This document shows, piece by piece, positions 3,644 to 17,754 of a stretch of 64,000 nucleotides of DNA. The first letter of the stretch is position 1; each line of letters opens with the position of its first letter. Source of the stretch: Candidatus Binataceae bacterium (GTDB lineage: Bacteria; Desulfobacterota; Binatia; Binatales; Binataceae). The notes beneath the pieces are model-generated. The model saw only the letters and a list, made by a program, of their open reading frames with translations, had not been told where the DNA came from and did not search any database. The stretch covers positions 73 to 64,072 of the forward strand of contig JBOHWK010000169.1 in the NCBI GenBank assembly GCA_050736715.1, given 5' to 3'. The position numbers and the translations under genes were made by a program.

Positions 3644-5254
3644 GTGGCGTGGGAGGACGCATCGAAATTGAAGCGGTTGGGTGGTATCGCCCGAATCGTG
3701 GCCGCGATTGCCGCAATGGTGGCTGTCGCGGGATGCGGTTATGCGCCGGGGTTTACCCGGCTGTCAAAAATCGAGCAGCCGAAACCGAAGAAATCGACGT
3801 TCTTCCTCGCTTCCGCCCACTGCCAATTGTGCCATCCCGCGGAGTACGAGGAATGGCGCACCTCGATGCATGCGTATGCGCAGCACAGCCCCGTCTTTCT
3901 CTCGTTCAACGATTTCGTCCTCAAATCGAGCGGCGGGTCGCTGGGCGATTTTTGCGAACGCTGCCATACCCCCGTCGGGATGTCGTCGGGCGAAAGCCCG
4001 GTCGAGCCTAATTCCAAGCGATCCGAAGCCGCCCTCGACAGCGTCGGCTGCATCGCGTGCCACTCGGAGCACACCAATAACGCCGAAGCGTCCGGGGTAA
4101 TCCATGTTCCGGTAAACGGCGACAGCGAACCAATTATTTACGGACCCTACTACGGCTACGACGAGCCGGGCGCGCCCAAGAATCCGGCGATGCGCCTGAT
4201 CAAAACGCCCCACGAATCGCGCCATTCCGACTATTTCACCCACGCGCGATTGTGCGCGGCCTGCCATGACGTGTTCTCGCCCGACGGCTTCCGAATCGAG
4301 GAAGCGTACAGCGAATGGAAGAACGGCCCCTACGCGCGGCGCGGCATCCAATGCGAGAACTGCCACATGGGGCCGATTCCCGGCAAACCGTTCGCGCGGA
4401 CGGAATTCACCCGCGACTACATAGTCGATCCCAATCTCTTTCCCAACGCGCCGAAGCGGTACCGCTCCAACCATCGTTTCACCGGTCCCGACTATTCCCT
4501 GCTCGCGGCGTTCGGACAGAATGCGCTCTCGCTCGACAGCGCGTCGTTCAAGAAATTGGAGGCGCAACTCGAAACCCAGCGGGAGACGTTGTTGCGCAAT
4601 GCCGCCACGATGCGGGTGAAGCTGCCCGGCGGCGTGACGGCGGGAGCGGCGCTGCCGATTACGGTCGCGGTGACCAATTCGGGTGCGGGGCATAATCTTC
4701 CGACCGGATTCGCGGCGGAGCGGCAATTGTGGCTCGAGGTGATCGTCACCGACTCAACCGGAAGGCAAATCTTCATCTCCGGCAACACCGATGAAAACGG
4801 CGACCTGCTCGATCCCGACAGCGAGGAAGTCCGCGCGGGCAAGCTGCCGATCGATTTGGACCTATTCAACCTCGAGGCGCAATTCATCAATCTCGATTTC
4901 AAGGGCACCGATGCCGAGAACATCAGCACCGTCAACCGCTTCCTCGACCCGGTTCCGTTCGTGACCCCTCCCCAGACCCCATCCCTCATCAACGGAAATG
5001 TTCCGGCGGGCCGCATCTTCAAGCGCGGAATCCCGCCGCTGGAGACGCGGACGGCGGACTACCGGGTGGAGGTTCCATGGGACGCGGCGGGTCCGCTGAC
5101 CGTATCGGTTCGGCTGCGCTACCGGAATTTGCCGCCCCATCTGCTCGCCGAACTCGGCATCCCGAAATATCGAGCGAAGCTAAGAGTCGTGGACTTGGCC
5201 ACGTTCAAGAAACAGGTTGCGATCGATTCGGCCGCGGTCTCCAGCGCGCGTTGA
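3644..5254 (+). CDS. pentaheme c-type cytochrome, predicted lipoprotein
   Basis: GTG start; signal peptide ending in lipobox VAGC; five CXXCH (CQLCH, CERCH, CIACH, CAACH, CENCH) in the first ~240 aa followed by a ~300-aa non-heme domain. Confidence 0.8.
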   Translation: MAWEDASKLKRLGGIARIVAAIAAMVAVAGCGYAPGFTRLSKIEQPKPKKSTFFLASAHCQLCHPAEYEEWRTSMHAYAQHSPVFLSFNDFVLKSSGGSLGDFCERCHTPVGMSSGESPVEPNSKRSEAALDSVGCIACHSEHTNNAEASGVIHVPVNGDSEPIIYGPYYGYDEPGAPKNPAMRLIKTPHESRHSDYFTHARLCAACHDVFSPDGFRIEEAYSEWKNGPYARRGIQCENCHMGPIPGKPFARTEFTRDYIVDPNLFPNAPKRYRSNHRFTGPDYSLLAAFGQNALSLDSASFKKLEAQLETQRETLLRNAATMRVKLPGGVTAGAALPITVAVTNSGAGHNLPTGFAAERQLWLEVIVTDSTGRQIFISGNTDENGDLLDPDSEEVRAGKLPIDLDLFNLEAQFINLDFKGTDAENISTVNRFLDPVPFVTPPQTPSLINGNVPAGRIFKRGIPPLETRTADYRVEVPWDAAGPLTVSVRLRYRNLPPHLLAELGIPKYRAKLRVVDLATFKKQVAIDSAAVSSAR

Positions 5255-5260
5255 GCCGCG

Positions 5261-6706
5261 ATGCGAGTGCGACGGGTGCCAATTTCCGCAATCAGAAAGG
5301 CGAAAGCCGCCGCGATAATTTTCGCGATGATTATGCTCGCGCCGGCCGGCGCGGCGGCGTTTACGGTATTCGGCGCCGATTTCATCTCGCCGGGACAGGT
5401 CCCGGATTCAAATTGGACGCTGTTCGGAGAGACGCTCAATCCGCGCCTCGACGTGGACGGCGACATCCGGATTCAATTCAACAACTACCGGCTCGGAGCT
5501 CCGGCGCCGCCGCCATCCAGCGGCATCGCCTTCCTCTATTCGCCGCCACCGCCGGTCATTACGGGTCAGACGTTCGGGCAATTCGTGCCGGAAGCCGACT
5601 TTGAAGCGAATCTGCAATTGACCGCGACGCAGCGGATTAACGTGCTGTTCCGGCCGTTCGAGGGTGGCGATCGCGAGCCGACGATTTGCGAATTTGCCGC
5701 GCCGAAAAAAGGCTGCACGTTTCAGGAGGAAGCCGCCCCCGCCGCGCTGTATTACGAGGGCCAGCCGTTCAACTGGCTAAGTCCCACCGACCGGCTGCCG
5801 CTGGACTTCAATGTTGCGGTGGGGCGGATTCCGTTCGTGCTGCAGAATGGCCTGTTCTTCGAGAACATCTTCGACGGCTTCGCGATCTCCAAGAACAATA
5901 TCCAGTTGGGCGACCTGTCGAATTTGAACGTAATCTACTTTCTGACTCTCGGAGAGACGCAGGGCGGCGTGAATTTCCGCGACGAGCAGCAGCAGCGGAA
6001 GAAGCTGATGGGCGGGTCGGTCGATTTCGACTGGTTCGATTATTTCTTCGAGGCCGAGTACGCACGCAGCTACGGCAACAATCCGATTCCGGGCGACGGC
6101 GCCGATCTGAACCGGAGTTTCATGGCGGCTTCCGTGACCCGCAATTTCGGCGGAGAGGCCGGCGCCACGCTGCGCGCGCTGGGAAATACCGGGAATGCGA
6201 CTAGCGGCGCGGGAGGGCTGTTCGCGTTCGAGTTCAACAAATTGGTTGGCCCGGCGCAGGGCTACGTCAATGTCTTCGGCGCCACGCAAAACTGGCTTCC
6301 GCTATCGGTGGAAGGATCGGCGCTGACCCGCGAGGGAATCCTGTTCGACTTCGACCGGCTGGCGAATTTTCCCCAGCTCAATCCGCGCGGTTCCAACAGC
6401 ATCGGCGGCGCAATCGGAGCGATATTCTGGCCCAAAGCCCAAACCACCTACACGCCGGAAATCGGCTGGCTCATCGACAACAAACCCAATAACAGCAACG
6501 ACCAGATCGGCGCCGCCTTCGAGATTCAGTCGGACTTGGCCTCGCTCCTGATTCCCGGCGACGCGCCGGCGGAACTCCAGCGGCGCGGGCTATTGTATGG
6601 CACGCTCGCGCGGCTTACCTTTACTGGGATACAAAACATGAACCGCGGAGTGGCGGGCGAGCGGTTCGATTACGGGGAGCGCTTGGAGTTAATCTACCAG
6701 TTCTGA
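5261..6706 (+). CDS. outer-membrane beta-barrel protein (porin-like), no heme motif
   Basis: Starts 6 nt after the lipoprotein cytochrome; Sec signal peptide (AAIIFAMIMLAPAGAAAF); Gly/Asn/Tyr-rich alternating pattern; C-terminal ...LELIYQF with terminal Phe typical of OM beta-barrels. Confidence 0.55.
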   Translation: MRVRRVPISAIRKAKAAAIIFAMIMLAPAGAAAFTVFGADFISPGQVPDSNWTLFGETLNPRLDVDGDIRIQFNNYRLGAPAPPPSSGIAFLYSPPPPVITGQTFGQFVPEADFEANLQLTATQRINVLFRPFEGGDREPTICEFAAPKKGCTFQEEAAPAALYYEGQPFNWLSPTDRLPLDFNVAVGRIPFVLQNGLFFENIFDGFAISKNNIQLGDLSNLNVIYFLTLGETQGGVNFRDEQQQRKKLMGGSVDFDWFDYFFEAEYARSYGNNPIPGDGADLNRSFMAASVTRNFGGEAGATLRALGNTGNATSGAGGLFAFEFNKLVGPAQGYVNVFGATQNWLPLSVEGSALTREGILFDFDRLANFPQLNPRGSNSIGGAIGAIFWPKAQTTYTPEIGWLIDNKPNNSNDQIGAAFEIQSDLASLLIPGDAPAELQRRGLLYGTLARLTFTGIQNMNRGVAGERFDYGERLELIYQF

Positions 6707-6719
6707 GGGAGGAGCGAAG

Positions 6720-7082
6720 ATGATTAAGCAAAGTCTAATTTTGGCTGCCGCGGCCGTGCTCGCGATGCCGGCCGCGTCCGCGTTTGCCGCGGGAAACGCC
6801 GCCGCCGGCGCCGCAGTCGCCGCCAAGAAATGCGCGGGATGCCATGGCGCGACAGGCGCGGGCAACGGTCCGGAGTTGCAGATGCTGAATGTCACCGTCC
6901 CGCCGGTTCCCTGGACGGACAAGGCGAAGATGTCCAAGTTCAGCGACGCCTATCTCACCAAGATCGTCACCGATGGTGGCCGCGCGGTCGGAAAAGGGCC
7001 GCTGATGGCGCCGTTCAAGGGCAAGCTTACCGCCGCGCAGATAAGCGACGCGATCGCCTACATCAGGTCGCTCGCGAAATAG
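6720..7082 (+). CDS. monoheme class I cytochrome c (c55x/c6-like), periplasmic
   Basis: 120 aa; signal peptide; single CAGCH heme site; downstream Met-rich loop (GPLMAPFKG) typical of a Met sixth ligand. Confidence 0.8.
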   Translation: MIKQSLILAAAAVLAMPAASAFAAGNAAAGAAVAAKKCAGCHGATGAGNGPELQMLNVTVPPVPWTDKAKMSKFSDAYLTKIVTDGGRAVGKGPLMAPFKGKLTAAQISDAIAYIRSLAK

Positions 7083-7099
7083 AATCCGGCGGTGCGGGA

Positions 7100-7798
7100 G
7101 TGAAAGCTAATCCGCTCGACAGCGCATTCGCGTTTCTGAAGATCGGCCATCAACAGGGCGAGCAATGGGGCACAGCGCTCGATTGGGCGATTATCTTCAC
7201 GCTGGTCCTGAGCGCATCGATCATCGTCCTCGTAATGGTCAGCCGAGCCGCATACCGGGGACGGCAGGAACAGCCCCCGGCGATTTGGCTGAACGTGCTC
7301 GCATTGGGCATATTCCCCGTGCTGCTCCTATTTTTCGGAAATTTCGCTGTATTCAGCTACGCGGAGCAGGAGCAATTTTGCGCATCATGCCATCTCACGA
7401 TGCAGCCGTACATCAATGACATCGACAATCCAAGCAGCAAAAGCCTGGCCGCCTGGCACCATCAGAACCACTTTTCGCCGGGCGGCGAGGAGGCCTGCTA
7501 CACCTGCCACGCCGACTACGGAATTCACGGCACCTTCAGGGCCAAACTGTCGGGCCTGCACGACGCGTATGCGTATGCAACGCACACCTATCGTCTGCCG
7601 ATTAAGCTCAGGAGGCCATTCAGGAACAGCCTGTGCTTAAAGTGCCATAACAGCACCAGGCTGTTCATGGCGGTCGATTCGCACTTGGGCGAGGACAACA
7701 AGGTTTCGAGCGCAATTTTGGACAATTCGCTGCAGTGCACGGTCTGCCACGGCCCCGCGCACCGGCTCGAACAATTTAAGAAGGCGGCGAAAACTTAG
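7100..7798 (+). CDS. NapC/NirT/NrfH-family membrane-anchored tetraheme cytochrome c (quinol dehydrogenase)
   Basis: GTG at 7100 preceded by GGGAG; one N-terminal TM helix (WAIIFTLVLSASIIVLVMV) then four CXXCH (CASCH, CYTCH, CLKCH, CTVCH); ~230 aa, the family's architecture. Confidence 0.8.
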   Translation: MKANPLDSAFAFLKIGHQQGEQWGTALDWAIIFTLVLSASIIVLVMVSRAAYRGRQEQPPAIWLNVLALGIFPVLLLFFGNFAVFSYAEQEQFCASCHLTMQPYINDIDNPSSKSLAAWHHQNHFSPGGEEACYTCHADYGIHGTFRAKLSGLHDAYAYATHTYRLPIKLRRPFRNSLCLKCHNSTRLFMAVDSHLGEDNKVSSAILDNSLQCTVCHGPAHRLEQFKKAAKT

Positions 7799-7800
7799 CC

Positions 7801-8346
7801 ATGCCCAGTCTTCAAGTCCGAAGAGGTAATTGGCCGCCGCGATTGCTCACCGCGGCGCAGATAATGGCCGGGCTCGTCGCGCTGATCGTGCTATTCGCGA
7901 CTTTGACCCTGAATCCATTTCTGATTCTCGGTTTCACATTCCTTGAGGTTCTGCTTCCGATCGCCGTGGTGTGCTTCTTTGTCGTGGCAGTCGCTTCGCT
8001 CCATCCCACGATTACCGAATTTTTCGAACCGGGGGACGTAATCTTTGAGGAGGGGACGGAGGGAAGACACCTCTACTTGATTAAAAAAGGCCGCGTTGAA
8101 CTCCTTAAAAAGAACCCGGAAGGAGCCTTCGAAGTCGTCTCACAGCTGAGCGAAGGACAGCGTTTCGGCTACGCCGCGATCTTCCATCGCCTCCACCGCA
8201 TCTATACCGCTCGCGCGGCCGGCAAATGCGAAGTTGTGAAGATGACACCCGCCGGATTCTTTGCGTCGGTCGAACCCGCCGAAGCGGAACGCATCCTCCA
8301 GTTTGGCGCCGCGCTGACGCTCGAACAGGGAAAGCCGAATCAGTGA
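7801..8346 (+). CDS. membrane protein with a C-terminal cyclic-nucleotide-binding (CAP-family) domain
   Basis: Two predicted TM helices followed by GDVIFEEGTEGRHLYLIKKGRVEL...GYAAIF, matching the cNMP-binding beta-roll signature; 2 nt after the NapC-like gene. Confidence 0.65.
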   Translation: MPSLQVRRGNWPPRLLTAAQIMAGLVALIVLFATLTLNPFLILGFTFLEVLLPIAVVCFFVVAVASLHPTITEFFEPGDVIFEEGTEGRHLYLIKKGRVELLKKNPEGAFEVVSQLSEGQRFGYAAIFHRLHRIYTARAAGKCEVVKMTPAGFFASVEPAEAERILQFGAALTLEQGKPNQ

Positions 8347-8437: not shown

Positions 8438-11071
8438 ATGAAGCGGGGGATTATAGTCGCGCTGCTTCTGTTGATCGCCGGGTTTCCCGGCAGCCTGCTC
8501 GCCGCCGCTCCCGCAAAAGCTCCCACATGTACGCCGCTGCCTGCGGCTTCGACGCCCGGCTTCGCCACGATTCTCCTGACCTACATGGACAACTTCTGCT
8601 ACCTGAGTTGGGAGCATGACGCTCAAATCCGGTCGGCCAAAGGCACCCATCCGTATGTAAAGGTCTATTACTCGCCATCAATGTGGACGTGGCTCGAAGC
8701 CGGCGACCGCGAGGCCACCGTTCCCGACGGCGCGATGCTGGTAAAGGAACAGTACCAGACCCTTACCGCGCCGCTTTCCGAATGGACGATCATGGTCAAG
8801 GACCACACCGGATCGTGGGACGGCTGGTATTGGGCGGATTTCGCTTCGCCGAAGAAAGGCCCGCCGAAGTCACCGCCGTCCGCCACGGACGCATCCGGCG
8901 CGGCAAGTACCGTTGCAGCCGCTGCGCAGGGCAAGTATGGATGCGGGGAGCCGACGCTTACTTTCGCCGGCTTCGGTTCCGGCAACGGCAACACCTGTAT
9001 CGGATGCCATGCGTCGGCGGCGGACGGCCAGGGAACCTTTTCCAGCACCGATTACGTAGGCGCGGCATTGACGCCGCCCGATCTCAACGCGCCGCCGATT
9101 CTCGACAATATCCACCAGATTGGCGCCCGCCTGGCGGATATGCGCGCGATTGCCGCGCTCGATGCCGCCGGCGCAACTCCGCTTGAGAACGCAGTATCGC
9201 CCGATGACATCCGTCCGCTCTCCGCCGGGAAGGCGGCGTGCATGCCGCCCGAATCGCTCGACCACGTGGTGGCAGGCGGACAGCCCACCGGCGGCCCGGA
9301 AGAATTCCTGACTTCGGATCAATGCGCGTCGTGCCACGATGCGACCGGGACAATCTCGGGCACGGGCCGGGCGGATATTCCGAGTATGTTGTGGCCCGAC
9401 GCGATCACGCCGCTCGCGAATCTCTCCGAATACGGCGAGTGGCGCTATTCGATGATGGGGCTGGCGGGGCGCGATCCGATCTTCTTTTCGCAGCTCAATT
9501 CGGAATCCACCATCCATGACAATCTGCAAGGATTGCCCGGCAACCCCAGCCCTCCGCTGTTCGTGCAGAACTTATGTCTTCATTGCCACGGCGTGATGGG
9601 ACAGCGGCAACTGCAGATCGATACCGGCGGCACCGGGCTCTTGTCTCGCGCGGAACTGAACGATCCGAATTCAAAATACGGCGCGCTCGGCCGCGACGGC
9701 ATCTCGTGCCTCGTTTGCCATCATATTTCTCCCGAAGGTCTGGGCGACCCTTCCACCTTCACCGGCGATTTCAACGTCGGTCCCGCGACCGAAGTTTACG
9801 CCCAGTACCCCGATCCGATAACGTTGCCGATGGATAACGCGCTGGGTATCACGCCTGAGGACGGCAGCCAGATCGGCGATCCCGCGATGTGTGGATCGTG
9901 CCACACGATCATCCTGCCGGTGTACGCCGCCAACGGGAATCAAGTCATGGAAGGCGGCGTGCCCAAAACATTTTACGAGCAGGCGACATTTCCAGAATGG
10001 CTGAACAGCAACTTCGCAACGGTTCCCTGCCAAACCTGCCATATGCCGGACACGTATCATGGCAGTCCGCTCTCGTACAAAATCGCGAACATCGAGGACA
10101 ATACCTTCCCGGCGTTCCCGTTCGTCGCCCCCGCCGAGGACATCACGATGCAAGTGCGGCAGCCGTTCAACCGCCACACTCTCCTCGGCATCAACGTCTT
10201 CGCGCTGGAGATGTTCGGGCAGTTCCGCACCGCGCTGGGGCTTTATGCGACGGACCCACAATTGCCCGGCAATGCCGCAAAGGCGATTTCCAGCCAAAAA
10301 ACCGCAGTCGTGGAAGCGGTGAATGAGGCCGTTACCCAGACCGCGACGGTCGATATTCTTTCCGCTACCAGAGTTGGCGGCACGATTCAGGCCGATGTGA
10401 CAGTGACGAACCTGGCCGGGCATAGTTTCCCGTCTGGGGTGGGCTTCCGCCGCGCATTCGTGGATTTTCAGGTGCTCGGTCCGGGCGGGAAAGTACTGTG
10501 GGCATCGGGCGACACGAATAAGAAAGGGGTGATCGTCGGCATCAAGCGCAAGCCGCTCATCACGGAATACTTCACTCCCAAGCAGCAGGCCTTCCAGCCG
10601 CACTTTTGGATCGGCAATCCGATTACCAGCGAAAACCAGGCGCAGATTTACGAGGAATTGGTCGCCGATCCGCAGGGACAATTGACCACCAGCTTTCTCA
10701 GCTTGGACAACAAGGTAAAGGACAACCGGCTCCAGCCGCAGGGATGGTCCGTGGACGGGCCGTTCGCCGAGGAAACCGGCCCGGCCGGCGGCGCGTCTGA
10801 CGACCCCGATTACACGACCACCGACAGCCCCGGCTCCAACACGATTCGTTACGAGGTGCCGATTAATTCCAAGACCACGAACGCGATCGCGGTGAGCGCG
10901 ACCTTGTACTATCAGGCAATCCCGCCCTATTACCTGTATATGCGCTCGCACGACGCGAGCGGCCCCGACACCTCCCGTTTGAACGATTTCACCAAGCGGC
11001 TGCGCGTCAAAGGCACCCCCGTGGACAACTGGCGGCTGCAAATCGCGACGCAAACGCAGAATATTCAGTAG
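8438..11071 (+). CDS. large secreted multiheme c-type cytochrome (6 CXXCH) with an N-terminal non-heme domain
   Basis: 877 aa; Sec signal; CIGCH, CASCH, CLHCH, CLVCH, CGSCH, CQTCH; N-terminal ~150 aa is aromatic-rich (FCYLSWEHD...DGWYWADF) without heme motifs; GGGGAAG RBS. Confidence 0.8.
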   Translation: MKRGIIVALLLLIAGFPGSLLAAAPAKAPTCTPLPAASTPGFATILLTYMDNFCYLSWEHDAQIRSAKGTHPYVKVYYSPSMWTWLEAGDREATVPDGAMLVKEQYQTLTAPLSEWTIMVKDHTGSWDGWYWADFASPKKGPPKSPPSATDASGAASTVAAAAQGKYGCGEPTLTFAGFGSGNGNTCIGCHASAADGQGTFSSTDYVGAALTPPDLNAPPILDNIHQIGARLADMRAIAALDAAGATPLENAVSPDDIRPLSAGKAACMPPESLDHVVAGGQPTGGPEEFLTSDQCASCHDATGTISGTGRADIPSMLWPDAITPLANLSEYGEWRYSMMGLAGRDPIFFSQLNSESTIHDNLQGLPGNPSPPLFVQNLCLHCHGVMGQRQLQIDTGGTGLLSRAELNDPNSKYGALGRDGISCLVCHHISPEGLGDPSTFTGDFNVGPATEVYAQYPDPITLPMDNALGITPEDGSQIGDPAMCGSCHTIILPVYAANGNQVMEGGVPKTFYEQATFPEWLNSNFATVPCQTCHMPDTYHGSPLSYKIANIEDNTFPAFPFVAPAEDITMQVRQPFNRHTLLGINVFALEMFGQFRTALGLYATDPQLPGNAAKAISSQKTAVVEAVNEAVTQTATVDILSATRVGGTIQADVTVTNLAGHSFPSGVGFRRAFVDFQVLGPGGKVLWASGDTNKKGVIVGIKRKPLITEYFTPKQQAFQPHFWIGNPITSENQAQIYEELVADPQGQLTTSFLSLDNKVKDNRLQPQGWSVDGPFAEETGPAGGASDDPDYTTTDSPGSNTIRYEVPINSKTTNAIAVSATLYYQAIPPYYLYMRSHDASGPDTSRLNDFTKRLRVKGTPVDNWRLQIATQTQNIQ

Positions 11072-11123: not shown

Positions 11124-12140
11124 ATGCGCGCAATTTGGATTACCAAGGCCGGCGGGCCCGAAGTGCTGGAGGTTCGCGAGACGCCCGATCCCGTTCCCAA
11201 GCCCGGCGAAGTACGGGTCCGCGTCGCCGCGTGCGGATTGAATTTCGCCGAATTGATGGCGCGGCAGGGGCTGTACCCCGACGCGCCCAAGATTCCGTGC
11301 GTGGTCGGCTATGAAGCCGCAGGCACGATCGATGCCGTCGGCGATGGCGCCGACCCCGGCCTAATCGGCAAGCGCGTGGTGGTGCTGTGCCGGTTCGGCG
11401 GGCACGCCGATCAGGTCTGCGTCACGGCGGCGAACGCCTTCCCGATCCCGGTCGAGATGAGCTTCGAGGAAGCCGCCGCGATTCCGGTGAATTACTTGAC
11501 CGCGTACCAGATGCTGTTCCGGGTTGCCTCGATTCATCCGGGCGAATCGGTCCTGATTCACATGGCGGCGGGCGGCGTGGGAATCGCGGCGCTGCAATTA
11601 TGCCGCACCGTCGAGGGAATCGTCACCTTCGGCACCGCGTCGTCGTCGAAGCACGAGGTAATCCGCGCCAACGGCTGCGGGTACCCGATCGATTACCACC
11701 AGACCGATTATTTCGCGGAAGTCATGCGGCTGACCGGCGGCAAGGGCGTGGATGTGGTCCTCGATCCGCTCGGCGGCAACGATTGGCGCAAGGGTTACAA
11801 ATTGCTCAAGTCGGCGGGAAAATTGATCGCGTTCGGATTCTCCAACATGGCGTCCGGGAACACGCGCAACTACTGGCGGATGCTCCGCCAAATCGTGCGG
11901 GTTCCGATCTTCACCCCGATGGGCCTGATGGACAAGAATCGCAGCGTCGCCGGCGTCAACATGGGCCACCTGTGGGACGATCCCTACCTGCCGTTCGCGA
12001 TGAACCGGCTCTTAATCATGTATCGCGAGGGACAGATCAAGCCGCATATCGATTCGACGTTTCCGTTTGCGCAGGCGGCGCAGGCGCACTTGCGTCTTCA
12101 GGAAGGAAAGAATATCGGGAAAGTAGTGATGACTCCGTAG
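11124..12140 (+). CDS. zinc-binding alcohol dehydrogenase-family oxidoreductase (NADPH:quinone reductase-like, MDR)
   Basis: 338 aa; GEVRVRVAACGLNFAELMARQG N-terminal catalytic-domain motif; Rossmann AAGGVG. Confidence 0.85.
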   Translation: MRAIWITKAGGPEVLEVRETPDPVPKPGEVRVRVAACGLNFAELMARQGLYPDAPKIPCVVGYEAAGTIDAVGDGADPGLIGKRVVVLCRFGGHADQVCVTAANAFPIPVEMSFEEAAAIPVNYLTAYQMLFRVASIHPGESVLIHMAAGGVGIAALQLCRTVEGIVTFGTASSSKHEVIRANGCGYPIDYHQTDYFAEVMRLTGGKGVDVVLDPLGGNDWRKGYKLLKSAGKLIAFGFSNMASGNTRNYWRMLRQIVRVPIFTPMGLMDKNRSVAGVNMGHLWDDPYLPFAMNRLLIMYREGQIKPHIDSTFPFAQAAQAHLRLQEGKNIGKVVMTP

Positions 12141-12324
12141 CGAGTGAGTCCGATATGCGCAGCATAATGACGCCACCTAACCCCGGCGCCGCCGGCAGAG
12201 TCTGGACCGCCAAAGGTATCATGATCTCGAAAGTTCTCAGTTTTTTGGTTCCCCTTCCCGTGCGGGAAGGGACCAGGGGGTAGGTTGATTTGGAGGGTTC
12301 CCCGCCGGGCAAGGAGTTGTACGA

Positions 12325-12912
12325 ATGAAACCGATTTTGTTTGAGGAGACGCTATCGCTGGCGGATTACGAGCGCGTGCGCGCACGCCTGCGCCCGCTAT
12401 TCATCCATGAAAAGGACCGCCGCCGCCTCGGCGTGGGCGCCCATCTGACGCTGCTCTTCGAGAACGCGCAAACGGTCTGGTATCAGGTCCATGAAATGAT
12501 CCGCAGCGAGCGGATGACCGCGCGCGAGGCGATTCAGCAGGAGTTGGACACATACAACGAGTTGATTCCGGGCCCCGGCGAATTGACCGCGTCGCTGCTG
12601 ATCGAATACGCCGATACCGCCGAGCGCGACGCGGCGTTGCGGCGCTTGGTCGGTTTGGAAGACCATCTCTGGCTCGTATTGGGAGATCGGCGAATCGCGG
12701 CGAAATTCGACGATCGCCAGATGTCGCCGGAACTGATTAGCGCGGTGCAATTCCTGCGGTTCCCGCTGGACGGCATCGATGCGGACTGGTTTGAGGATCT
12801 CGCAAGCCGCGGCGCGGCCGCAATCGAGGCCGATCATCCGAGCCTGGCGGCGCGGGCGGTTATTGGCGGATTGACCGCCGCTTCCCTGATCGAAGACTTG
12901 AGCCAGCCCTGA
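12325..12912 (+). CDS. conserved hypothetical protein, DUF3501-like
   Basis: 195 aa; LTLLFENAQTVWYQVHEM segment resembles the DUF3501 family as recalled from memory; no catalytic motif recognised. Confidence 0.45.
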   Translation: MKPILFEETLSLADYERVRARLRPLFIHEKDRRRLGVGAHLTLLFENAQTVWYQVHEMIRSERMTAREAIQQELDTYNELIPGPGELTASLLIEYADTAERDAALRRLVGLEDHLWLVLGDRRIAAKFDDRQMSPELISAVQFLRFPLDGIDADWFEDLASRGAAAIEADHPSLAARAVIGGLTAASLIEDLSQP

Positions 12913-13023: not shown

Positions 13024-15513
13024 TCATTCGGTAGAACCGGAAGGCGCCGGCGTGGGGGTGAATCCCGGCATCGCGACGCCGACTGGGAAGTTCAGGTGCG
13101 TCCGGCCTCCGCGGATGACGATGCTCGGTGGGAGGTCGCAGGTGGGCGCCGGATTGCCACTGCAATCGAAATCATCCCAGACCAGGAGGCTGTTGGTCAG
13201 GTGATCCACCACATAGAGATCGTCGTTGTCGTAGTTGTTCCAAGCGATCCCGACCGGCCGTTTGAGTTTGGTCTTCTTGCCGGCGATCGTTCCGATCAGA
13301 GGCGACGCATTCGTTAACGCGGTCGTGGGGTCGCAGAAGTTATTCGGGTTAGTCGGGCCTCCCACGCAGCACGAATACGGAGTTTGGTACCCGGTGCATA
13401 CGCTGTTCGTGATATCGAAAATCTTAATCCCGACTTGGCCGCAAGTACCCGTCCCCGTGCCGGTGCAACAAGCGTATGGGGTGCCATTGCAGAAACCCTG
13501 ACCGGGTCCGCTGCAGCAACTATTCGGCGCCTCGAAGCCGGTGCACTCGCTATTCGGGCCGTCGCAGGTACCCGTCCCTGCGCCGCTGCAACACGCATAC
13601 GGCGCGCCGAGTCCGGTACAGTCGCCGTTTATGTTGTCGCAGGTGCCCGTTCCTGCGCCGGTACAACAGGCAAACGGCGCTGGATCGGTAGGGGGAGTGC
13701 TGTCGGGACCGGCAGTGCATTTGGTATTGATATCGAGGCATTTGGAGGTTAGCGCGGGATTGCCGACGTCGGTAACGAACAAGTTGCTGCTGTCCGCGGT
13801 GACGGCGAGGAATTGCGGGCCGACCAGCGGACCGGCTAATAGCGGCGGAAGGTTCGCGCCCACGGCGCCTACCGGAATTACGTCTCCGGCGGCGTCCGGC
13901 GCGAATACCAGGACTGCCGCAATGCCCTTGGTTTCGCCGGCGGCGTCCGTGACAAACAGATTGTTATTGCCGTTGAATGCCAGCCCGGACGGGCCGAGCA
14001 GGACGGTGTTGCATCCCGCAATCGTGGCCAGCTTTGTGATCGTTGGCGGCTGCAGGCCCGGAACCGGGCAACTGGTGCAGGCGGCGTTTTGCTCGAAGAT
14101 TTCGCCCGCGTTAATCGGAGAGTTATTGCCCGACGCGTCGGATTCGTTCGTGTAATATTCGTTAATTGACCCGACGCTCGCCGCCGCGCCCAAGCCCGCA
14201 CTTATGCTGTTGCAGGTGCCGGTGCCGGGGCCTGTGCAGCAGGTATAAGGCGCGGCGCAACTGCCAACCCCCAATCCGGTGCAACACGCAACCGGCTCCT
14301 CATTGCCGGTGCATCCGGCGTTGCCTACCCCGGTGCACTCGGCGTTCGTGGGGGGAGTCGCCGGATCGCAGGTTATGGGGCAGAGCAGGCCGTTAATCCC
14401 GGTTGCGTTAGCTCCGCTGCAAGTGGTGTCGGTTCGCTCGCAATCTCCCGTTCCCGCCCCGGTACAGCACGGGAAAGCGCTTGGCTCCATTGTTATCTGG
14501 TTAATGCCGGTTCCCGGCCCGGTGCACTCCACACTTGGAAGAGGGGTATGGACAGTCTCGGTGGGACTCACGAAAAACCCATAATTCGACACGGCGAAAT
14601 ACTCGCCGGTGTTGCCGTTTCCTTGCGCGATGCCATCGGCAACGAGGGGATCGTCGGTATTGTACGGATTGGCGAAGGCGATGTCCTCCGGTGCGAACAG
14701 CCCCGCTTGGTCGCCGTCAGCAAGTCCCGCGGGGCAGGAACCGGCCTCCGGGCCGGTGCAGCATGGGTAAGGTATTCCGCAAGTGCCGGCGTTTTTGCCG
14801 ATGCAGCAGGAATTCGGCAGCCCTTTGGCGGTGCATCCGGAGTTGCCGCAGGTGCCCATCCCATCGCCGGTGCAACATGGATACGGCTCCGCGAATGCCG
14901 TGCAGGCGGCGTTAGGACTGGAAGTCGGTCCCGACAAGCACTCCGAGTTGCTGGAAGAATTCGGCATCGGAGAAGAAATCGTTGCGGCTGGGGGCGTATT
15001 GCCGTTGGACGAACCGGGCGAGAACAATCCGATTGAAAAGAAAAGCTGCGTGGCCAAGCCCGCGTTGACTTCGGTGTTCGTTTCGACCATGGGACTGTTG
15101 GACAGCGAACCGACCCCGATCCCGCCGACGACGGCGACGGACGGGGCGATCATGCCGGTTTTGTTGCCCTTGATTTCGGTGGCGGGCTTGGCATTGCCGT
15201 GGGAGCAGGGAGCGAAAGTCTCGACCGAGCCGGCGCCGCCGCCGTAGTTGGATACCGCCAGGCCCGCGAGTGGAGCGGTGGGAAATTCCGACGTATCCAT
15301 CCCGTCGGGGCATTTGCCGCTTTTCGCGTCCGCCTTCGCCTTGGACCCCGCGAAGCTGACGCCCGCCGTCGCCGCAAGCATCGCGGCGATCGCGAACGCC
15401 GCCGCCGGAACCGCAAGCCGGCGAACTGCGGCGGCAAGACGCCCCGCCGCCGTGCGGGCGGGCGAAACTCCATGCGCCTCTTGAGCCATCGTTTGCATTT
15501 TTCCCTGCGTCAT
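13024..15513 (-). CDS. large secreted Cys/Gly/Thr-rich repeat protein with NHL-like beta-propeller repeats
   Basis: 829 aa; ATG at 15513 with GGGGGT RBS; signal peptide (RRLAVPAAAFAIAAMLAATAG); ~11 degenerate repeats of PY-x-CC(T/S)G-x-G(T)G(T)C; NLFVTD / DLYVVDHLTNSLLVWD NHL-type motifs. Confidence 0.7.
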   Translation of the reverse strand: MTQGKMQTMAQEAHGVSPARTAAGRLAAAVRRLAVPAAAFAIAAMLAATAGVSFAGSKAKADAKSGKCPDGMDTSEFPTAPLAGLAVSNYGGGAGSVETFAPCSHGNAKPATEIKGNKTGMIAPSVAVVGGIGVGSLSNSPMVETNTEVNAGLATQLFFSIGLFSPGSSNGNTPPAATISSPMPNSSSNSECLSGPTSSPNAACTAFAEPYPCCTGDGMGTCGNSGCTAKGLPNSCCIGKNAGTCGIPYPCCTGPEAGSCPAGLADGDQAGLFAPEDIAFANPYNTDDPLVADGIAQGNGNTGEYFAVSNYGFFVSPTETVHTPLPSVECTGPGTGINQITMEPSAFPCCTGAGTGDCERTDTTCSGANATGINGLLCPITCDPATPPTNAECTGVGNAGCTGNEEPVACCTGLGVGSCAAPYTCCTGPGTGTCNSISAGLGAAASVGSINEYYTNESDASGNNSPINAGEIFEQNAACTSCPVPGLQPPTITKLATIAGCNTVLLGPSGLAFNGNNNLFVTDAAGETKGIAAVLVFAPDAAGDVIPVGAVGANLPPLLAGPLVGPQFLAVTADSSNLFVTDVGNPALTSKCLDINTKCTAGPDSTPPTDPAPFACCTGAGTGTCDNINGDCTGLGAPYACCSGAGTGTCDGPNSECTGFEAPNSCCSGPGQGFCNGTPYACCTGTGTGTCGQVGIKIFDITNSVCTGYQTPYSCCVGGPTNPNNFCDPTTALTNASPLIGTIAGKKTKLKRPVGIAWNNYDNDDLYVVDHLTNSLLVWDDFDCSGNPAPTCDLPPSIVIRGGRTHLNFPVGVAMPGFTPTPAPSGSTE

Positions 15514-15816
15514 TTTGTAACCCCCGCCGAATTCGGATCGACTCCCCGTTGCAGGACCAATCAGCGTTGCGCGTGTTAACTACCTTTTTCCGGCGGCAAT
15601 TTCAAGAGCACCGCAATTATTTTTGTGGCTGCGCCCGGCGGCGAGGTCGCCGGCCGTCGCTCCGGGAAGTCCGTCGTACTTGACAAGGCGGGGATCGGAA
15701 TGGTACCTAAGCCGCGTCCGCAGAGCGTCGCCTGCACTGGCGGGCGATGGGGTCTCCCGGCCGGGGCCGGAAGATTTGCGATGCCGCGAGAGCTCCAATT
15801 TGGCTTGGGGGTAGGT

Positions 15817-17754
15817 ATGCAGCACGGGAACATGGGACGCATGACGAGGGGGCGGATATTGCTCGTGGCCGCAATCGCGGCGGCGGCGACCTTGTGGTCC
15901 TCCGCCGCGATGGCGACGATCACTCAGGGCGATTTTTCCGTTTACGGATTCTTCGAGACCCGCGAATCGGGCCGCTGGGGCGAGGCCAGCGTCAAGAACA
16001 ACGGCACCCAGACCACCTACACTCATCCCATTCCGGGTGCGACCGAAGTTCTAAAGGGCGGGCAAGCAGGCAGCTACACCGGGGGCAGCTTCGATTTCAA
16101 TCATTGGGACCTGGTGGAAGCTCGCCAACTCGGCGACATCCGCCCCGACTATCATTTCGTAAAAAACTACAAATTCCTCGGTCGGTTCGACACGATTCTC
16201 CTCAAGGATGCCGACTTCTTTGCGTTGTGGCGGCCGTGGTACGACGCGGAAGGAGACCTCAAGAGCCAAGGAGTCGCCAACACCAACCGCGATTGGAACA
16301 ATTACCAGCACTACCAGATCACGCAGCAATACATCCGGGACGATCTGCACGAATATTACGCACAGTTGAATTTCACCGATAATTTCTCCGCGCGCATCGG
16401 CAAGCAGCAGGTAATTTGGTCGGAGGCGGACGCCTTATCGGGCACCGAGATCACCAACTCGGTGGACACCACCTATCACTGGCTGAACTTCGAATCGCCC
16501 GAAGACCTGCGCAAGAACGTGCGGATGATCAAGTTCAACTACATTCTCCCCGATATGTACAAGACCGCCAACAATGAAATCGACTTTTTCATTATTCCCG
16601 GCGATTTCCAGGGCGATGGCATCAATGTCAATCTCGGCGACGCCCGCAATCCGTGGACGCCGCCGGCGGCCGGCAGCCATTCGGCGTTGCTGTCGTCCTC
16701 GTACAACCAGAACGGCGAACCGTATTACGCCGCGACACCGCAACGGAGCGGCGCCGCGCCGATGACTCTGGTTTCGGCCGCGGGCGGCGGCGGCACATTT
16801 TTCGACCTGATGGAGGAGCCGTACGGCCACCCGCCCAGCAACTCGCTGGAAAACAGCGAATTCGGAATGCGCATCTCGAGCCTGCTGCCGATTGGCAACG
16901 GCCTCCAGATGAGTTTCATCTATTTGTACGAGGCGCGCGACTCCAAAATCAGCCTGTGCTCGAGTTGCGGTCCGCTGCAAGCGCAGCGGGCTTCGGCGGA
17001 ATTCATGGGGGCCGGTGCAAGGGCCTCGAACTGGGAATATCCGCCGGGAGGAATCGCGGCGCCCGCCGGGACCTTCGTCAATTTCGGCAACTACCGGTAT
17101 GGCTTCCCGCGCGCCGGCGTGCCGAAGGCCGGGACGGTGCTGGTCATGTACAACACCGATTACCGCCGCAATAACTTCTTCGATTTGACCGGCACCTATT
17201 ACGACAAGGACCTCACCGACATCGTGTACCGCTACGACTTTTTCTACGCCCCGAAGGTGGGTATCGCCACCGTCGAACCCTACGGAAAACTGGCCGGCCT
17301 GCCGGGTCCGGGAGCGGCGGGACAATGGACCCAGGAGTCCCGCTGGATCGTGGCCGCTGACCGGCCGACCTATATCCCGTGGATTTCCAAGCAGCACACC
17401 TTCCTGACCTTCCAGAACACCCTGACTTGGTATCCCGCCCTGCCGGAGCATGCGGTGGCCAATCTGCTGCAAACCGCGGGGAAGATTCGCGAGACCAGCG
17501 ATCTGTTTTTGGTGGCCGCGACCGATTGGCTGATGAACGGCCAGTTGACGACGCTGAATGCGGCCGCGTGGGACGTCGACGACCGCGTCGGCGAAATTAC
17601 CACCAGCAATTCGTACCGCTATTCGCGCAACGTTCTGTTCGGCGTGAACAGCGTCTGGTATCTGGGACAGAGCGGTAGGTACACCGATCCTTACACCTTC
17701 AGCCGCAGCCAGGTGATGAACGAATTGGAATTCACCCTGACCTACGAGATTTAG
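15817..17754 (+). CDS. large secreted/outer-membrane protein, hypothetical (possibly DUF1302-like)
   Basis: ATG at 15817 after GGGGGTAGG; signal peptide RILLVAAIAAAATLWSSAAMA; 646 aa, Tyr/Asn/Gly-rich beta-strand-like periodicity; DUF1302 assignment is from memory of family size only. Confidence 0.5.
   Translation: MQHGNMGRMTRGRILLVAAIAAAATLWSSAAMATITQGDFSVYGFFETRESGRWGEASVKNNGTQTTYTHPIPGATEVLKGGQAGSYTGGSFDFNHWDLVEARQLGDIRPDYHFVKNYKFLGRFDTILLKDADFFALWRPWYDAEGDLKSQGVANTNRDWNNYQHYQITQQYIRDDLHEYYAQLNFTDNFSARIGKQQVIWSEADALSGTEITNSVDTTYHWLNFESPEDLRKNVRMIKFNYILPDMYKTANNEIDFFIIPGDFQGDGINVNLGDARNPWTPPAAGSHSALLSSSYNQNGEPYYAATPQRSGAAPMTLVSAAGGGGTFFDLMEEPYGHPPSNSLENSEFGMRISSLLPIGNGLQMSFIYLYEARDSKISLCSSCGPLQAQRASAEFMGAGARASNWEYPPGGIAAPAGTFVNFGNYRYGFPRAGVPKAGTVLVMYNTDYRRNNFFDLTGTYYDKDLTDIVYRYDFFYAPKVGIATVEPYGKLAGLPGPGAAGQWTQESRWIVAADRPTYIPWISKQHTFLTFQNTLTWYPALPEHAVANLLQTAGKIRETSDLFLVAATDWLMNGQLTTLNAAAWDVDDRVGEITTSNSYRYSRNVLFGVNSVWYLGQSGRYTDPYTFSRSQVMNELEFTLTYEI

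Follow-up and report, generated by a model that had tools for sequence, protein, structure and literature searches.

Nitrifiers use haem domains of the cytochrome P460 type to oxidise hydroxylamine, and metagenome surveys take P460 as a sign that hydroxylamine is detoxified and N2O formed. P460s have been regarded as small, stand-alone, and proteobacterial (review PMC11928373), and one survey reported P460 to be absent from all Binatota genomes (PMC9938248). The subject of this analysis is a gene of a Candidatus Binataceae bacterium that lies in a stretch of 64,000 nucleotides (GenBank assembly GCA_050736715.1, contig JBOHWK010000169.1, positions 73 to 64,072; hereafter the window) and encodes an 877-aa hexahaem cytochrome. 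On the fold and sequence comparisons given below, its N-terminal domain is a haem-binding P460/c'-beta fold to which the first CXXCH motif belongs, and its other five haems together with the motif-free C-terminus are a single module of the c552/ExtKL (MccSep) type. Both modules are of kinds already known, and their combination is the new element; no description of a P460-multihaem cytochrome fusion was found in the literature searched.

The haem cross-linking lysine of Methylococcus capsulatus P460 (McP460) is Lys78, and the cytochrome c'-beta proteins carry Phe or Met, and no Lys, at the cross-link position (Table 2, PMC11928373). All enzymes known to contain a cross-linked P460 cofactor oxidise a nitrogen substrate bound to the haem, and P460 haem potentials are very low, at -300 to -424 mV (PMC11928373). 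A distal carboxylate is indispensable for NH2OH oxidation in the characterised P460s (PMC11928373), and the P460 of Nitrosomonas sp. AL212, which is without it, is inactive towards NH2OH (PMC6457333; PMC11928373). The 'PHC' family, to which cytochrome c552 has been assigned, also contains Geobacter ExtKL, Gsu2801, and cytochromes of cable bacteria, and a truncated haemoglobin is fused to some of its members (PMC11976967). ExtKL is MccSep, a selenocysteine polysulfide reductase and hence an enzyme rather than a wire, with an active site formed by the His/Cys-ligated haem 2 and selenocysteine (Sec) 325, which is carried on the loop 'AGHSIPDGU' from the Ig-like domain (bioRxiv 10.1101/2025.11.18.688581).

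A first-pass annotation, made from the letters of the sequence, had described an 877-aa open reading frame (ORF) with a signal peptide and six canonical CXXCH motifs. The ORF was found to be intact and its motifs to be kept in homologues, and the product is identical (100%) to NCBI MGH7815138.1, a 'hypothetical protein' of a Candidatus Binataceae metagenome-assembled genome (MAG). The alignment of N-termini revealed a lipobox in place of the Sec-type signal peptide in many homologues, and by these signals the protein is exported to the periplasm, often lipid-anchored. Exactly six CXXCH motifs are present (starting at aa 187, 296, 380, 424, 485, and 531), as compared to ~0.006 expected from composition and a maximum of 1 in 20,000 shuffles; the number is far above chance level. 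The motifs stretch over 349 aa (187-535) and the motif-free C-terminal part comprises 342 aa, figures that replace the ~450 aa and ~270 aa of the first-pass annotation. Non-canonical haem sites, for which it had proposed a search, are missing from the protein: there is no CXXCK, CX3CH, CX4CH, or CX15CH-like site, and each 'CH' dipeptide lies within a CXXCH. All six motifs were kept in 33 of 33 aligned homologues and, in a diverse set of 270, by essentially every member. Six is also the number in longer relatives, the full-length homologues examined all show exactly the six-haem architecture, and shorter family entries, which are without the start and signal peptide, look like fragments.

The N-terminal domain had been described as non-haem. 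An AlphaFold2 model of aa 28-215 had predicted local distance difference test (pLDDT) values of 72-91 across the beta-sheet core, and in a Foldseek comparison of this model with the PDB the top five structures were all c'-beta or P460 (M. capsulatus c'-beta, M. capsulatus P460, and Nitrosomonas europaea c'-beta; E 4e-4 to 0.17, probability 0.92-1.00; those at probability 1.0 had E 4e-4 to 2.6e-3), the next being at E>1. McP460 (6hiu) was retrieved again when the full-length model was used (probability 1.0). The canonical P460 set consisted of ~164-aa proteins found with a McP460 sequence fragment, 25 of which were aligned, and hhalign matched the N-domain family to these 25 with 95.5% probability and an E-value of 1.5e-8. 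The Pfam model PF16694 matched aa 55-142 with 25.7 bits, just below its cut-off of 27, and matched 10 of the 33 family members at E≤1e-3 (best 2.4e-8). Similarity to cytochrome P460/c'-beta, which the first-pass annotation had named as a test, was thus detected both by fold (Foldseek) and by profile (hhalign), and the same evidence ruled out a haem-free N-domain. PDB profile matches to Dpr-interacting Ig proteins (E 0.003-0.07) were judged to be chance matches of a Trp-rich beta-strand pattern, because they had no Foldseek support.

In the alignments with McP460, 'PDGAMLVK103EQY' was paired with 'PDGAILVK78LSW', 'MVKD' with 'MVKD', and CIGCH (187-191) with the P460 CXXCH. Cys187 was retained in 251 of 251 homologues covering the region, and Cys190 and His191 in 250. 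Lys103, at the position of the cross-link lysine (NeP460 Lys70 / McP460 Lys78), was retained in 240 of 247 homologues, the seven exceptions being the most distant, longer relatives. In the hhalign comparison Lys103 falls opposite a lysine that is invariant among the canonical P460s, and a covalent Lys103-haem cross-link is predicted from this placement. The domain thus shares with cytochrome P460 (CytL; N. europaea 2JE3, M. capsulatus 6HIU, Nitrosomonas sp. AL212 6AMG) the beta-sheet fold, the CXXCH near the domain C-terminus, the lysine, and the 'PDGA..VK' and 'MVKD' strands. Cytochrome P460 is, however, a ~160-aa stand-alone monohaem dimer, whereas here the fold is the N-terminal domain of an 877-aa hexahaem protein that scores below the PF16694 gathering cut-off and belongs to a family that is mainly outside Proteobacteria and has a 30-50-aa variable insertion before the CXXCH. 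In the present protein this low-complexity insertion (aa 137-168), which separates the beta-sheet core from CXXCH #1, is longer than in most homologues.

The aromatic-rich N-terminal block of the first-pass annotation is present (FCYLSWEHD at aa 53-61, YVKVYYSPSMWTWL at aa 73-86, and DGWYWADF at aa 128-135), with an F/W/Y content of 17% at residues 50-136 as opposed to 8.6% for the whole protein. His71, Tyr78, Asp61, and Asp128 are family-specific invariant residues of the P460-like domain. The distal capping position, which is Phe or Arg in cytochrome P460, is placed with low confidence: in the global hhalign alignment Lys75 stands opposite McP460 Arg50 with low per-column confidence and is basic in 192 of 246 homologues, and in a weak, non-significant phmmer alignment to M. 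capsulatus c'-beta (McCP-beta; E ~1.5) Tyr77 takes that position instead of Lys75. W-x-H and H-P motifs are alike in this phmmer alignment.

The best PDB match of the full-length model, which had a pLDDT of 88.4 and a predicted template modelling score (pTM) of 0.88 and was weak only at the signal peptide and two loops, was 5ZE8, the structure of the low-potential pentahaem cytochrome c552 of Thermochromatium tepidum (E 2.9e-13, template modelling score normalised to the target 0.67, 572 columns); apart from 5ZE8 and McP460, Foldseek returned nothing significant for this model in the PDB. The family profile also matched c552 (5ze8 residues 286-338) around 'NLAGH662SFPSG' with an E-value of 1.7e-6. 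There the N-x-x-G-H-x-x-P-x-G motif NLAGHSFPSG (aa 658-667) was aligned with 'NLQPHAMPTG' of c552 and 'AGHNLPTG' of a pentahaem paralogue encoded in the window (3644-5254), and GH-x-x-P-x-G is common to the hexahaem protein, c552, MccSep, and this paralogue. The paralogue is collinear with aa 326-700 of the target (BLASTP E 1e-13), its haems 1-5 corresponding to target haems 2-6. The C-terminal region, which had been taken for a separate domain, accordingly belongs as an Ig-like sandwich to the pentahaem module itself. The layout that had been proposed, with a haem-free binding N-domain, a six-haem wire, and a separate C-terminal domain, is not supported; the N-domain is of a small-molecule-binding type, but it owns haem 1 and the wire has only five haems. 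Searches with the single whole protein gave no family assignment: NCBIfam gave no match, Pfam gave generic cytochrome c fragments and the sub-threshold P460 match with no model spanning the full length, and a PDB sequence search gave nothing significant.

Like c552 and the PHC proteins (cable-bacteria sPHC/lPHC, Gsu2801), the module has a five-haem cap and a C-terminal Ig-like sandwich, but it is ~1.6x larger than c552 (~610 versus 385 aa) with long conserved insertions at aa 540-635 and 700-800, it has Met for at least one canonical distal His, and its fusion partner is a P460 domain where some PHCs have a truncated haemoglobin. The 'W..S.H' element is a usual multihaem motif with the distal His; it reads 'EEWRTSMH' in the paralogue, and here Met340 replaces that His, while His580 and His662 are common to both proteins. 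His662, kept in 267 of 267 homologues, is a candidate haem ligand. Two to three conserved non-motif histidines are available for the five haems of the module, and the conserved candidate distal ligands are Met317, Met340, Met465, His580, and His662. These five Met/His would suffice to complete haems 2-6, and if they do so, haem 1 would be the natural open site. The protein is also related to MccSep/ExtKL of Geobacter sulfurreducens as a member of the pentahaem and Ig-like family whose loop 'AGHSIPDGU' corresponds to 'AGHSFPSGV668GFRR', but the hexahaem family has no Sec (Val668 is at the Sec position), no haem-ligating Cys, and no family-wide conduit gene cluster.

The only non-haem cysteines of the protein are at positions 31, 54, 169, and 268. 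Cys169 and Cys268 occurred together in 122 sequences and were both missing in 13, with 2 discordant, and because of this near-perfect co-occurrence a disulfide tying the P460 linker to the pentahaem module is suggested; Cys169 and Cys268 are probably bonded in this way. With the confident full-length model and the fixed six-haem architecture, this covariation is consistent with the two modules forming one rigid unit. Cys31 (8528-8530) was kept in 203 of 211 sequences, and Cys54 (8597-8599) was absent in 50 that have Cys31.

The family is large. A word-indexed search found >1,800 full-length relatives of 49-66% identity, named 'hypothetical protein' or given generic cytochrome c labels in their sources, and when a library clustered at 50% identity was searched with a profile, 3,650 representatives matched at E≤1e-3, of which 815 reached E≤1e-30. 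With one genome scanned for each species, the gene was present in at least 583 species. The hosts include Binatia, MAGs labelled 'delta proteobacterium', and many Acidobacteriota (Acidobacteriaceae, including the cultured strain KBS 83, Bryobacteraceae, Pyrinomonadaceae, Blastocatellia, and Thermoanaerobaculia), as well as Chloroflexota, Gemmatimonadota, Planctomycetota, Bacteroidota, Deinococcaceae, Poribacteria, and the cultured alphaproteobacterium Tistlia consotensis. A P460 scaffold with the cross-link lysine therefore sits in a large unnamed hexahaem family of abundant soil phyla, which domain-based metagenome surveys would undercount because PF16694 detects the P460 domain in only about one third of members. 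Candidatus Binatus sp. MFD06940_ilm_asm_bin44 carries two family paralogues on different contigs (loci L029 and L033), with 48% and 46% identity to the query.

From the sequence and the models, the protein is best read as a periplasmic oxidoreductase in which a P460-type haem converts a small molecule and is wired via five haems to periplasmic carriers, and we give this reading a probability of about one half. In the first module (aa 28-195), haem 1 on CIGCH would be the ligand-binding, catalytic site, five-coordinate and Lys-cross-linked, with Lys103 placed where P460 enzymes cross-link the porphyrin. The second module (aa 268-877) would carry electrons between haem 1 and general periplasmic carriers. 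In the most likely direction, haem 1 would oxidise a small reduced nitrogen compound (hydroxylamine, or an NO/hydrazine-level species) and electrons would exit via haems 2-6 to c-type cytochromes; in the source genome, the onward path could be the NrfH-like quinone-linked cytochrome encoded two genes upstream. Substrate and direction of electron flow are suggested by analogy, an oxidative role on NH2OH-, NO-, or N2H4-level compounds being favoured because cross-linked P460 cofactors are known from oxidative enzymes only and have a very low potential.

In octahaem hydroxylamine oxidoreductase (HAO), the cross-link is made by a Tyr of the adjacent subunit, and seven haems are bis-His-ligated. 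The hexahaem protein would be a functional analogue of it built from unrelated parts, the likeness to HAO and hydrazine dehydrogenase being one of concept only, in that a cross-linked P460-type haem would be wired to a haem chain in one polypeptide. No sequence or fold similarity to HAO, NrfA, ONR, OTR, or MccA was detected in PDB sequence and profile searches or by Foldseek, and full-length similarity to a characterised octahaem reductase, an identity that the first-pass annotation had set against its own, was not found (OTR 1sp3 at E 0.51; none in Foldseek). The more specific proposal, that a single-chain, Lys-cross-linked P460 haem oxidises NH2OH-, NO-, or N2H4-level species into the respiratory chain and that the family is an unrecognised, widespread counterpart of HAO, is put forward tentatively and is well short of an even chance. 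If it is true, the lack of the canonical carboxylate means that protons would be relayed by a chemistry unlike that of the known P460s.

Several points weigh against an oxidoreductase of this kind. The main one is that the carboxylate position (McP460 Asp102 / NeP460 Glu96), which corresponds to residue 117, is Thr/Ala/Ser family-wide (T151, A49, S28, V8, with neither Asp nor Glu ranking in the top six residues), which is also the situation in the AL212 enzyme that is inactive towards NH2OH; with the carboxylate missing, either the chemistry must deviate in its details or another substrate must be used. The invariant His71, Tyr78, Asp61, and Asp128 could provide a sixth ligand or another chemistry. 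Met340 in place of the distal His hints at high-potential haems, which would be compatible with either electron direction. Gene context and regulatory motifs gave no pointer to nitrogen metabolism. When six-frame ORFs from 84 loci were clustered, no conserved neighbour was shared across phyla; the largest shared neighbour family, a membrane cyclic nucleotide monophosphate (cNMP)-binding protein, was confined to 15 loci of Pyrinomonadaceae/Blastocatellia, and no porin or cytochrome was among the neighbour families shared between loci. The Pfam-labelled contexts of four other homologues were unrelated (hydrogenase maturation genes, glycoside hydrolases, GMC oxidoreductase, and ribosomal proteins). 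FNR/Dnr box, sigma-54, NsrR, and NorR-like motifs upstream were not enriched over shuffled controls, and promoter- and terminator-like sites around the gene were at background level. Because there are no conserved neighbours, no enrichment of regulator motifs, and only background promoters and terminators, the gene behaves as a self-contained unit.

It is unlikely that electrons run in the opposite direction, with haem 1 acting reductively or peroxidatically in detoxification (on H2O2, NO, nitrite, or hydroxylamine) and fed by the cytochrome c pool via haems 2-6. The absence of the canonical carboxylate for NH2OH oxidation would agree with such a role, as would a basic Lys/Arg75 that may occupy the capping position, the Arg-capped N. 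europaea c'-beta showing peroxidase-like activity (PMC11928373). In aerobic heterotrophs the gene is transcribed as a monocistronic unit. In KBS 83 it is directly preceded by a ferritin-family (PF00210) gene and followed ~3 kb downstream by one for an AhpC-type peroxiredoxin, and in the window a quinone reductase gene adjoins the target; these neighbourhood themes are, however, not conserved between loci. Met340 in place of the distal His recalls the high-potential His/Met entry haem of dihaem peroxidases, but with P460 haems at -300 to -424 mV, His/Met haems would have to pass electrons to them energetically uphill. Oxidative P460 chemistry is typified by the cross-link Lys that the family conserves, and the capping residue is aligned with low confidence.

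If the protein chiefly served electron transfer or terminal reduction in the manner of ExtKL/c552, with metals, humics, or other external acceptors as targets, the P460-like domain would add a sixth, possibly six-coordinate, relay haem or a docking surface, and the invariant His71 or Tyr78 could then ligate haem 1. The strongest structural match is indeed the pentahaem c552, many homologues are lipoproteins, relatives such as ExtKL occur in outer-membrane conduit clusters (PMC11976967), and an ExtKL-like lipoprotein, a possible outer-membrane barrel, and the NrfH-like cytochrome are encoded just upstream in the window. We nevertheless regard this role as distinctly improbable. A near-universal cross-link Lys and a whole P460 fold are hard to explain for a plain relay haem, and every known protein of the P460/c'-beta fold binds ligands at a five-coordinate haem (PMC11928373). 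The first-pass annotation had suggested a catalytic or surface-binding terminal cytochrome rather than a simple wire. That the protein is more than a wire agrees with its P460-type domain, but a surface-binding terminal role is not the favoured reading, as 80 related loci from many phyla share neither a porin nor a partner cytochrome beside the gene.

The N-domain could also be a c'-beta-like NO/CO buffer or sensor, the five haems serving only to set or report a redox state. Cytochromes c'-beta (M. capsulatus 6HIH, N. europaea 7S5O) share the fold and are the best Foldseek matches of the isolated domain, the distal carboxylate is missing, and cNMP-binding membrane proteins adjoin the gene in the window and at the 15 Pyrinomonadaceae/Blastocatellia loci. 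The c'-beta proteins are, however, stand-alone gas binders with Phe/Met in place of the Lys that the hexahaem family conserves, the protein has no output domain, and a large, highly conserved pentahaem module would be excessive for gas buffering, so that we hold this explanation to be very improbable. Catalysis within the pentahaem module in the manner of MccSep, with the P460-like domain as electron entry, is largely excluded: the loop after GHS-x-P (the Sec325 loop in MccSep) is highly conserved and followed by two invariant arginines, and with so few conserved non-motif histidines one haem might be open, but a Sec/Cys active site was rejected in view of Val668 and of the absence of any conserved free Cys from the module (Cys169 and Cys268 co-vary as a pair), the NCBIfam ExtKL model NF040886 did not match the protein, and the five conserved Met/His could complete all five haems.

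If haem 1 is catalytic as in the favoured P460 reading, the family would represent a second, independent wiring of a P460 haem to an electron-transfer chain, and would matter for the question of which organisms consume NH2OH and NO in soils. Were the family a counterpart of HAO, an unaccounted route for the turnover of nitrification intermediates and for NO/N2O production would exist in non-nitrifying bacteria of soils and the sea, among them Acidobacteriota, Binatia, and Chloroflexota. If haem 1 is not catalytic, the family is still a natural carboxylate-less P460 variant, and such variants are of interest to the field. Because truncated-haemoglobin-PHC fusions provide a precedent, the fusion also suggests that the pentahaem module may be a general chassis for ligand-binding haem domains. 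The cultured hosts (Acidobacteriaceae KBS 83 and Tistlia consotensis) make direct testing possible.

Table 1. Features of the hexahaem protein gene and of its neighbours, in coordinates of the window.
Feature	Coordinates	Strand	Basis or remark
Hexahaem protein gene, complete, stop TAG included	8438..11071	+	ORF list and translation; 877 aa
Sec-type signal peptide MKRGIIVALLLLIAGFPGSLLAAA, aa 1-24	8438..8509	+	Sequence and homologue N-termini; model pLDDT low
Cytochrome P460/c'-beta-fold domain, aa 28-195, own haem site included	8519..9022	+	Foldseek, hhalign, Pfam
Lys75 codon, candidate distal capping residue, low confidence	8660..8662	+	Global hhalign, opposite McP460 Arg50
Lys103 codon, at haem cross-link lysine position (McP460 Lys78)	8744..8746	+	Hidden Markov model and hhalign alignments
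Thr117 codon, at distal proton-accepting carboxylate position	8786..8788	+	McP460 Asp102 / NeP460 Glu96 in alignments
Low-complexity Pro/Ala/Ser insertion, aa 137-168	8846..8941	+	Gapped alignment columns; pLDDT <50 at aa 148-163
Cys169 codon	8942..8944	+	Probable disulfide partner of Cys268
CXXCH #1 CIGCH, aa 187-191, P460-like domain haem site	8996..9010	+	Aligned with McP460 and McCP-beta CXXCH
Pentahaem domain, c552/ExtKL (PHC) type, aa 268-560	9239..10117	+	Foldseek 5ze8; BLASTP to in-window paralogue
Cys268 codon	9239..9241	+	Probable disulfide partner of Cys169
CXXCH #2-#6	9323-9337, 9575-9589, 9707-9721, 9890-9904, 10028-10042	+	Within pentahaem domain
Most conserved block GEWRYSMMGLAGRDP, aa 333-347	9434..9478	+	Family conservation figures
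Ig-like beta-sandwich, aa 636-877	10343..11068	+	5ze8 profile match; beta-rich secondary structure, pLDDT >90
Motif NLAGHSFPSGVGFRR in Ig-like domain, invariant His662, Arg671, Arg672	10409-10453	+	Conservation
ExtKL-like pentahaem lipoprotein, 536 aa, lipobox VAGC	3644-5254	+	Module paralogue; weak sub-threshold NCBIfam ExtKL match
Secreted protein, 481 aa, ends ...YQF, possibly beta-barrel	5261-6706	+	No family match
NrfH/NapC-like tetrahaem membrane cytochrome, 322 aa	6830-7798	+	Two genes upstream of target
Small membrane protein, transmembrane helices and cNMP-binding domain	7801-8346	+	Directly upstream of target
PIG3-type NAD(P)H:quinone oxidoreductase and DUF3501 protein	11124-12912	+	Directly downstream of target

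Upstream of the gene, the three genes at 3644-7798 (+) may constitute an Ext-type outer-membrane electron conduit cluster. The cNMP-binding protein of the window belongs to a different sequence family from the 15 Pyrinomonadaceae/Blastocatellia copies, and in three of those 15 loci (among L039-L055 and L073) a second cNMP-binding gene lies downstream. On a Binatia chromosome (locus L085), a GMC oxidoreductase gene takes the downstream place instead, at a distance of 8 bp. Further downstream in the window, the ORFs at 13024-15513 (-), of 829 aa, and 15625-17754 (+), of 709 aa, have no Pfam match but show a coding-like GC content at third codon positions (GC3) and a faint NHL-like NCBIfam match.

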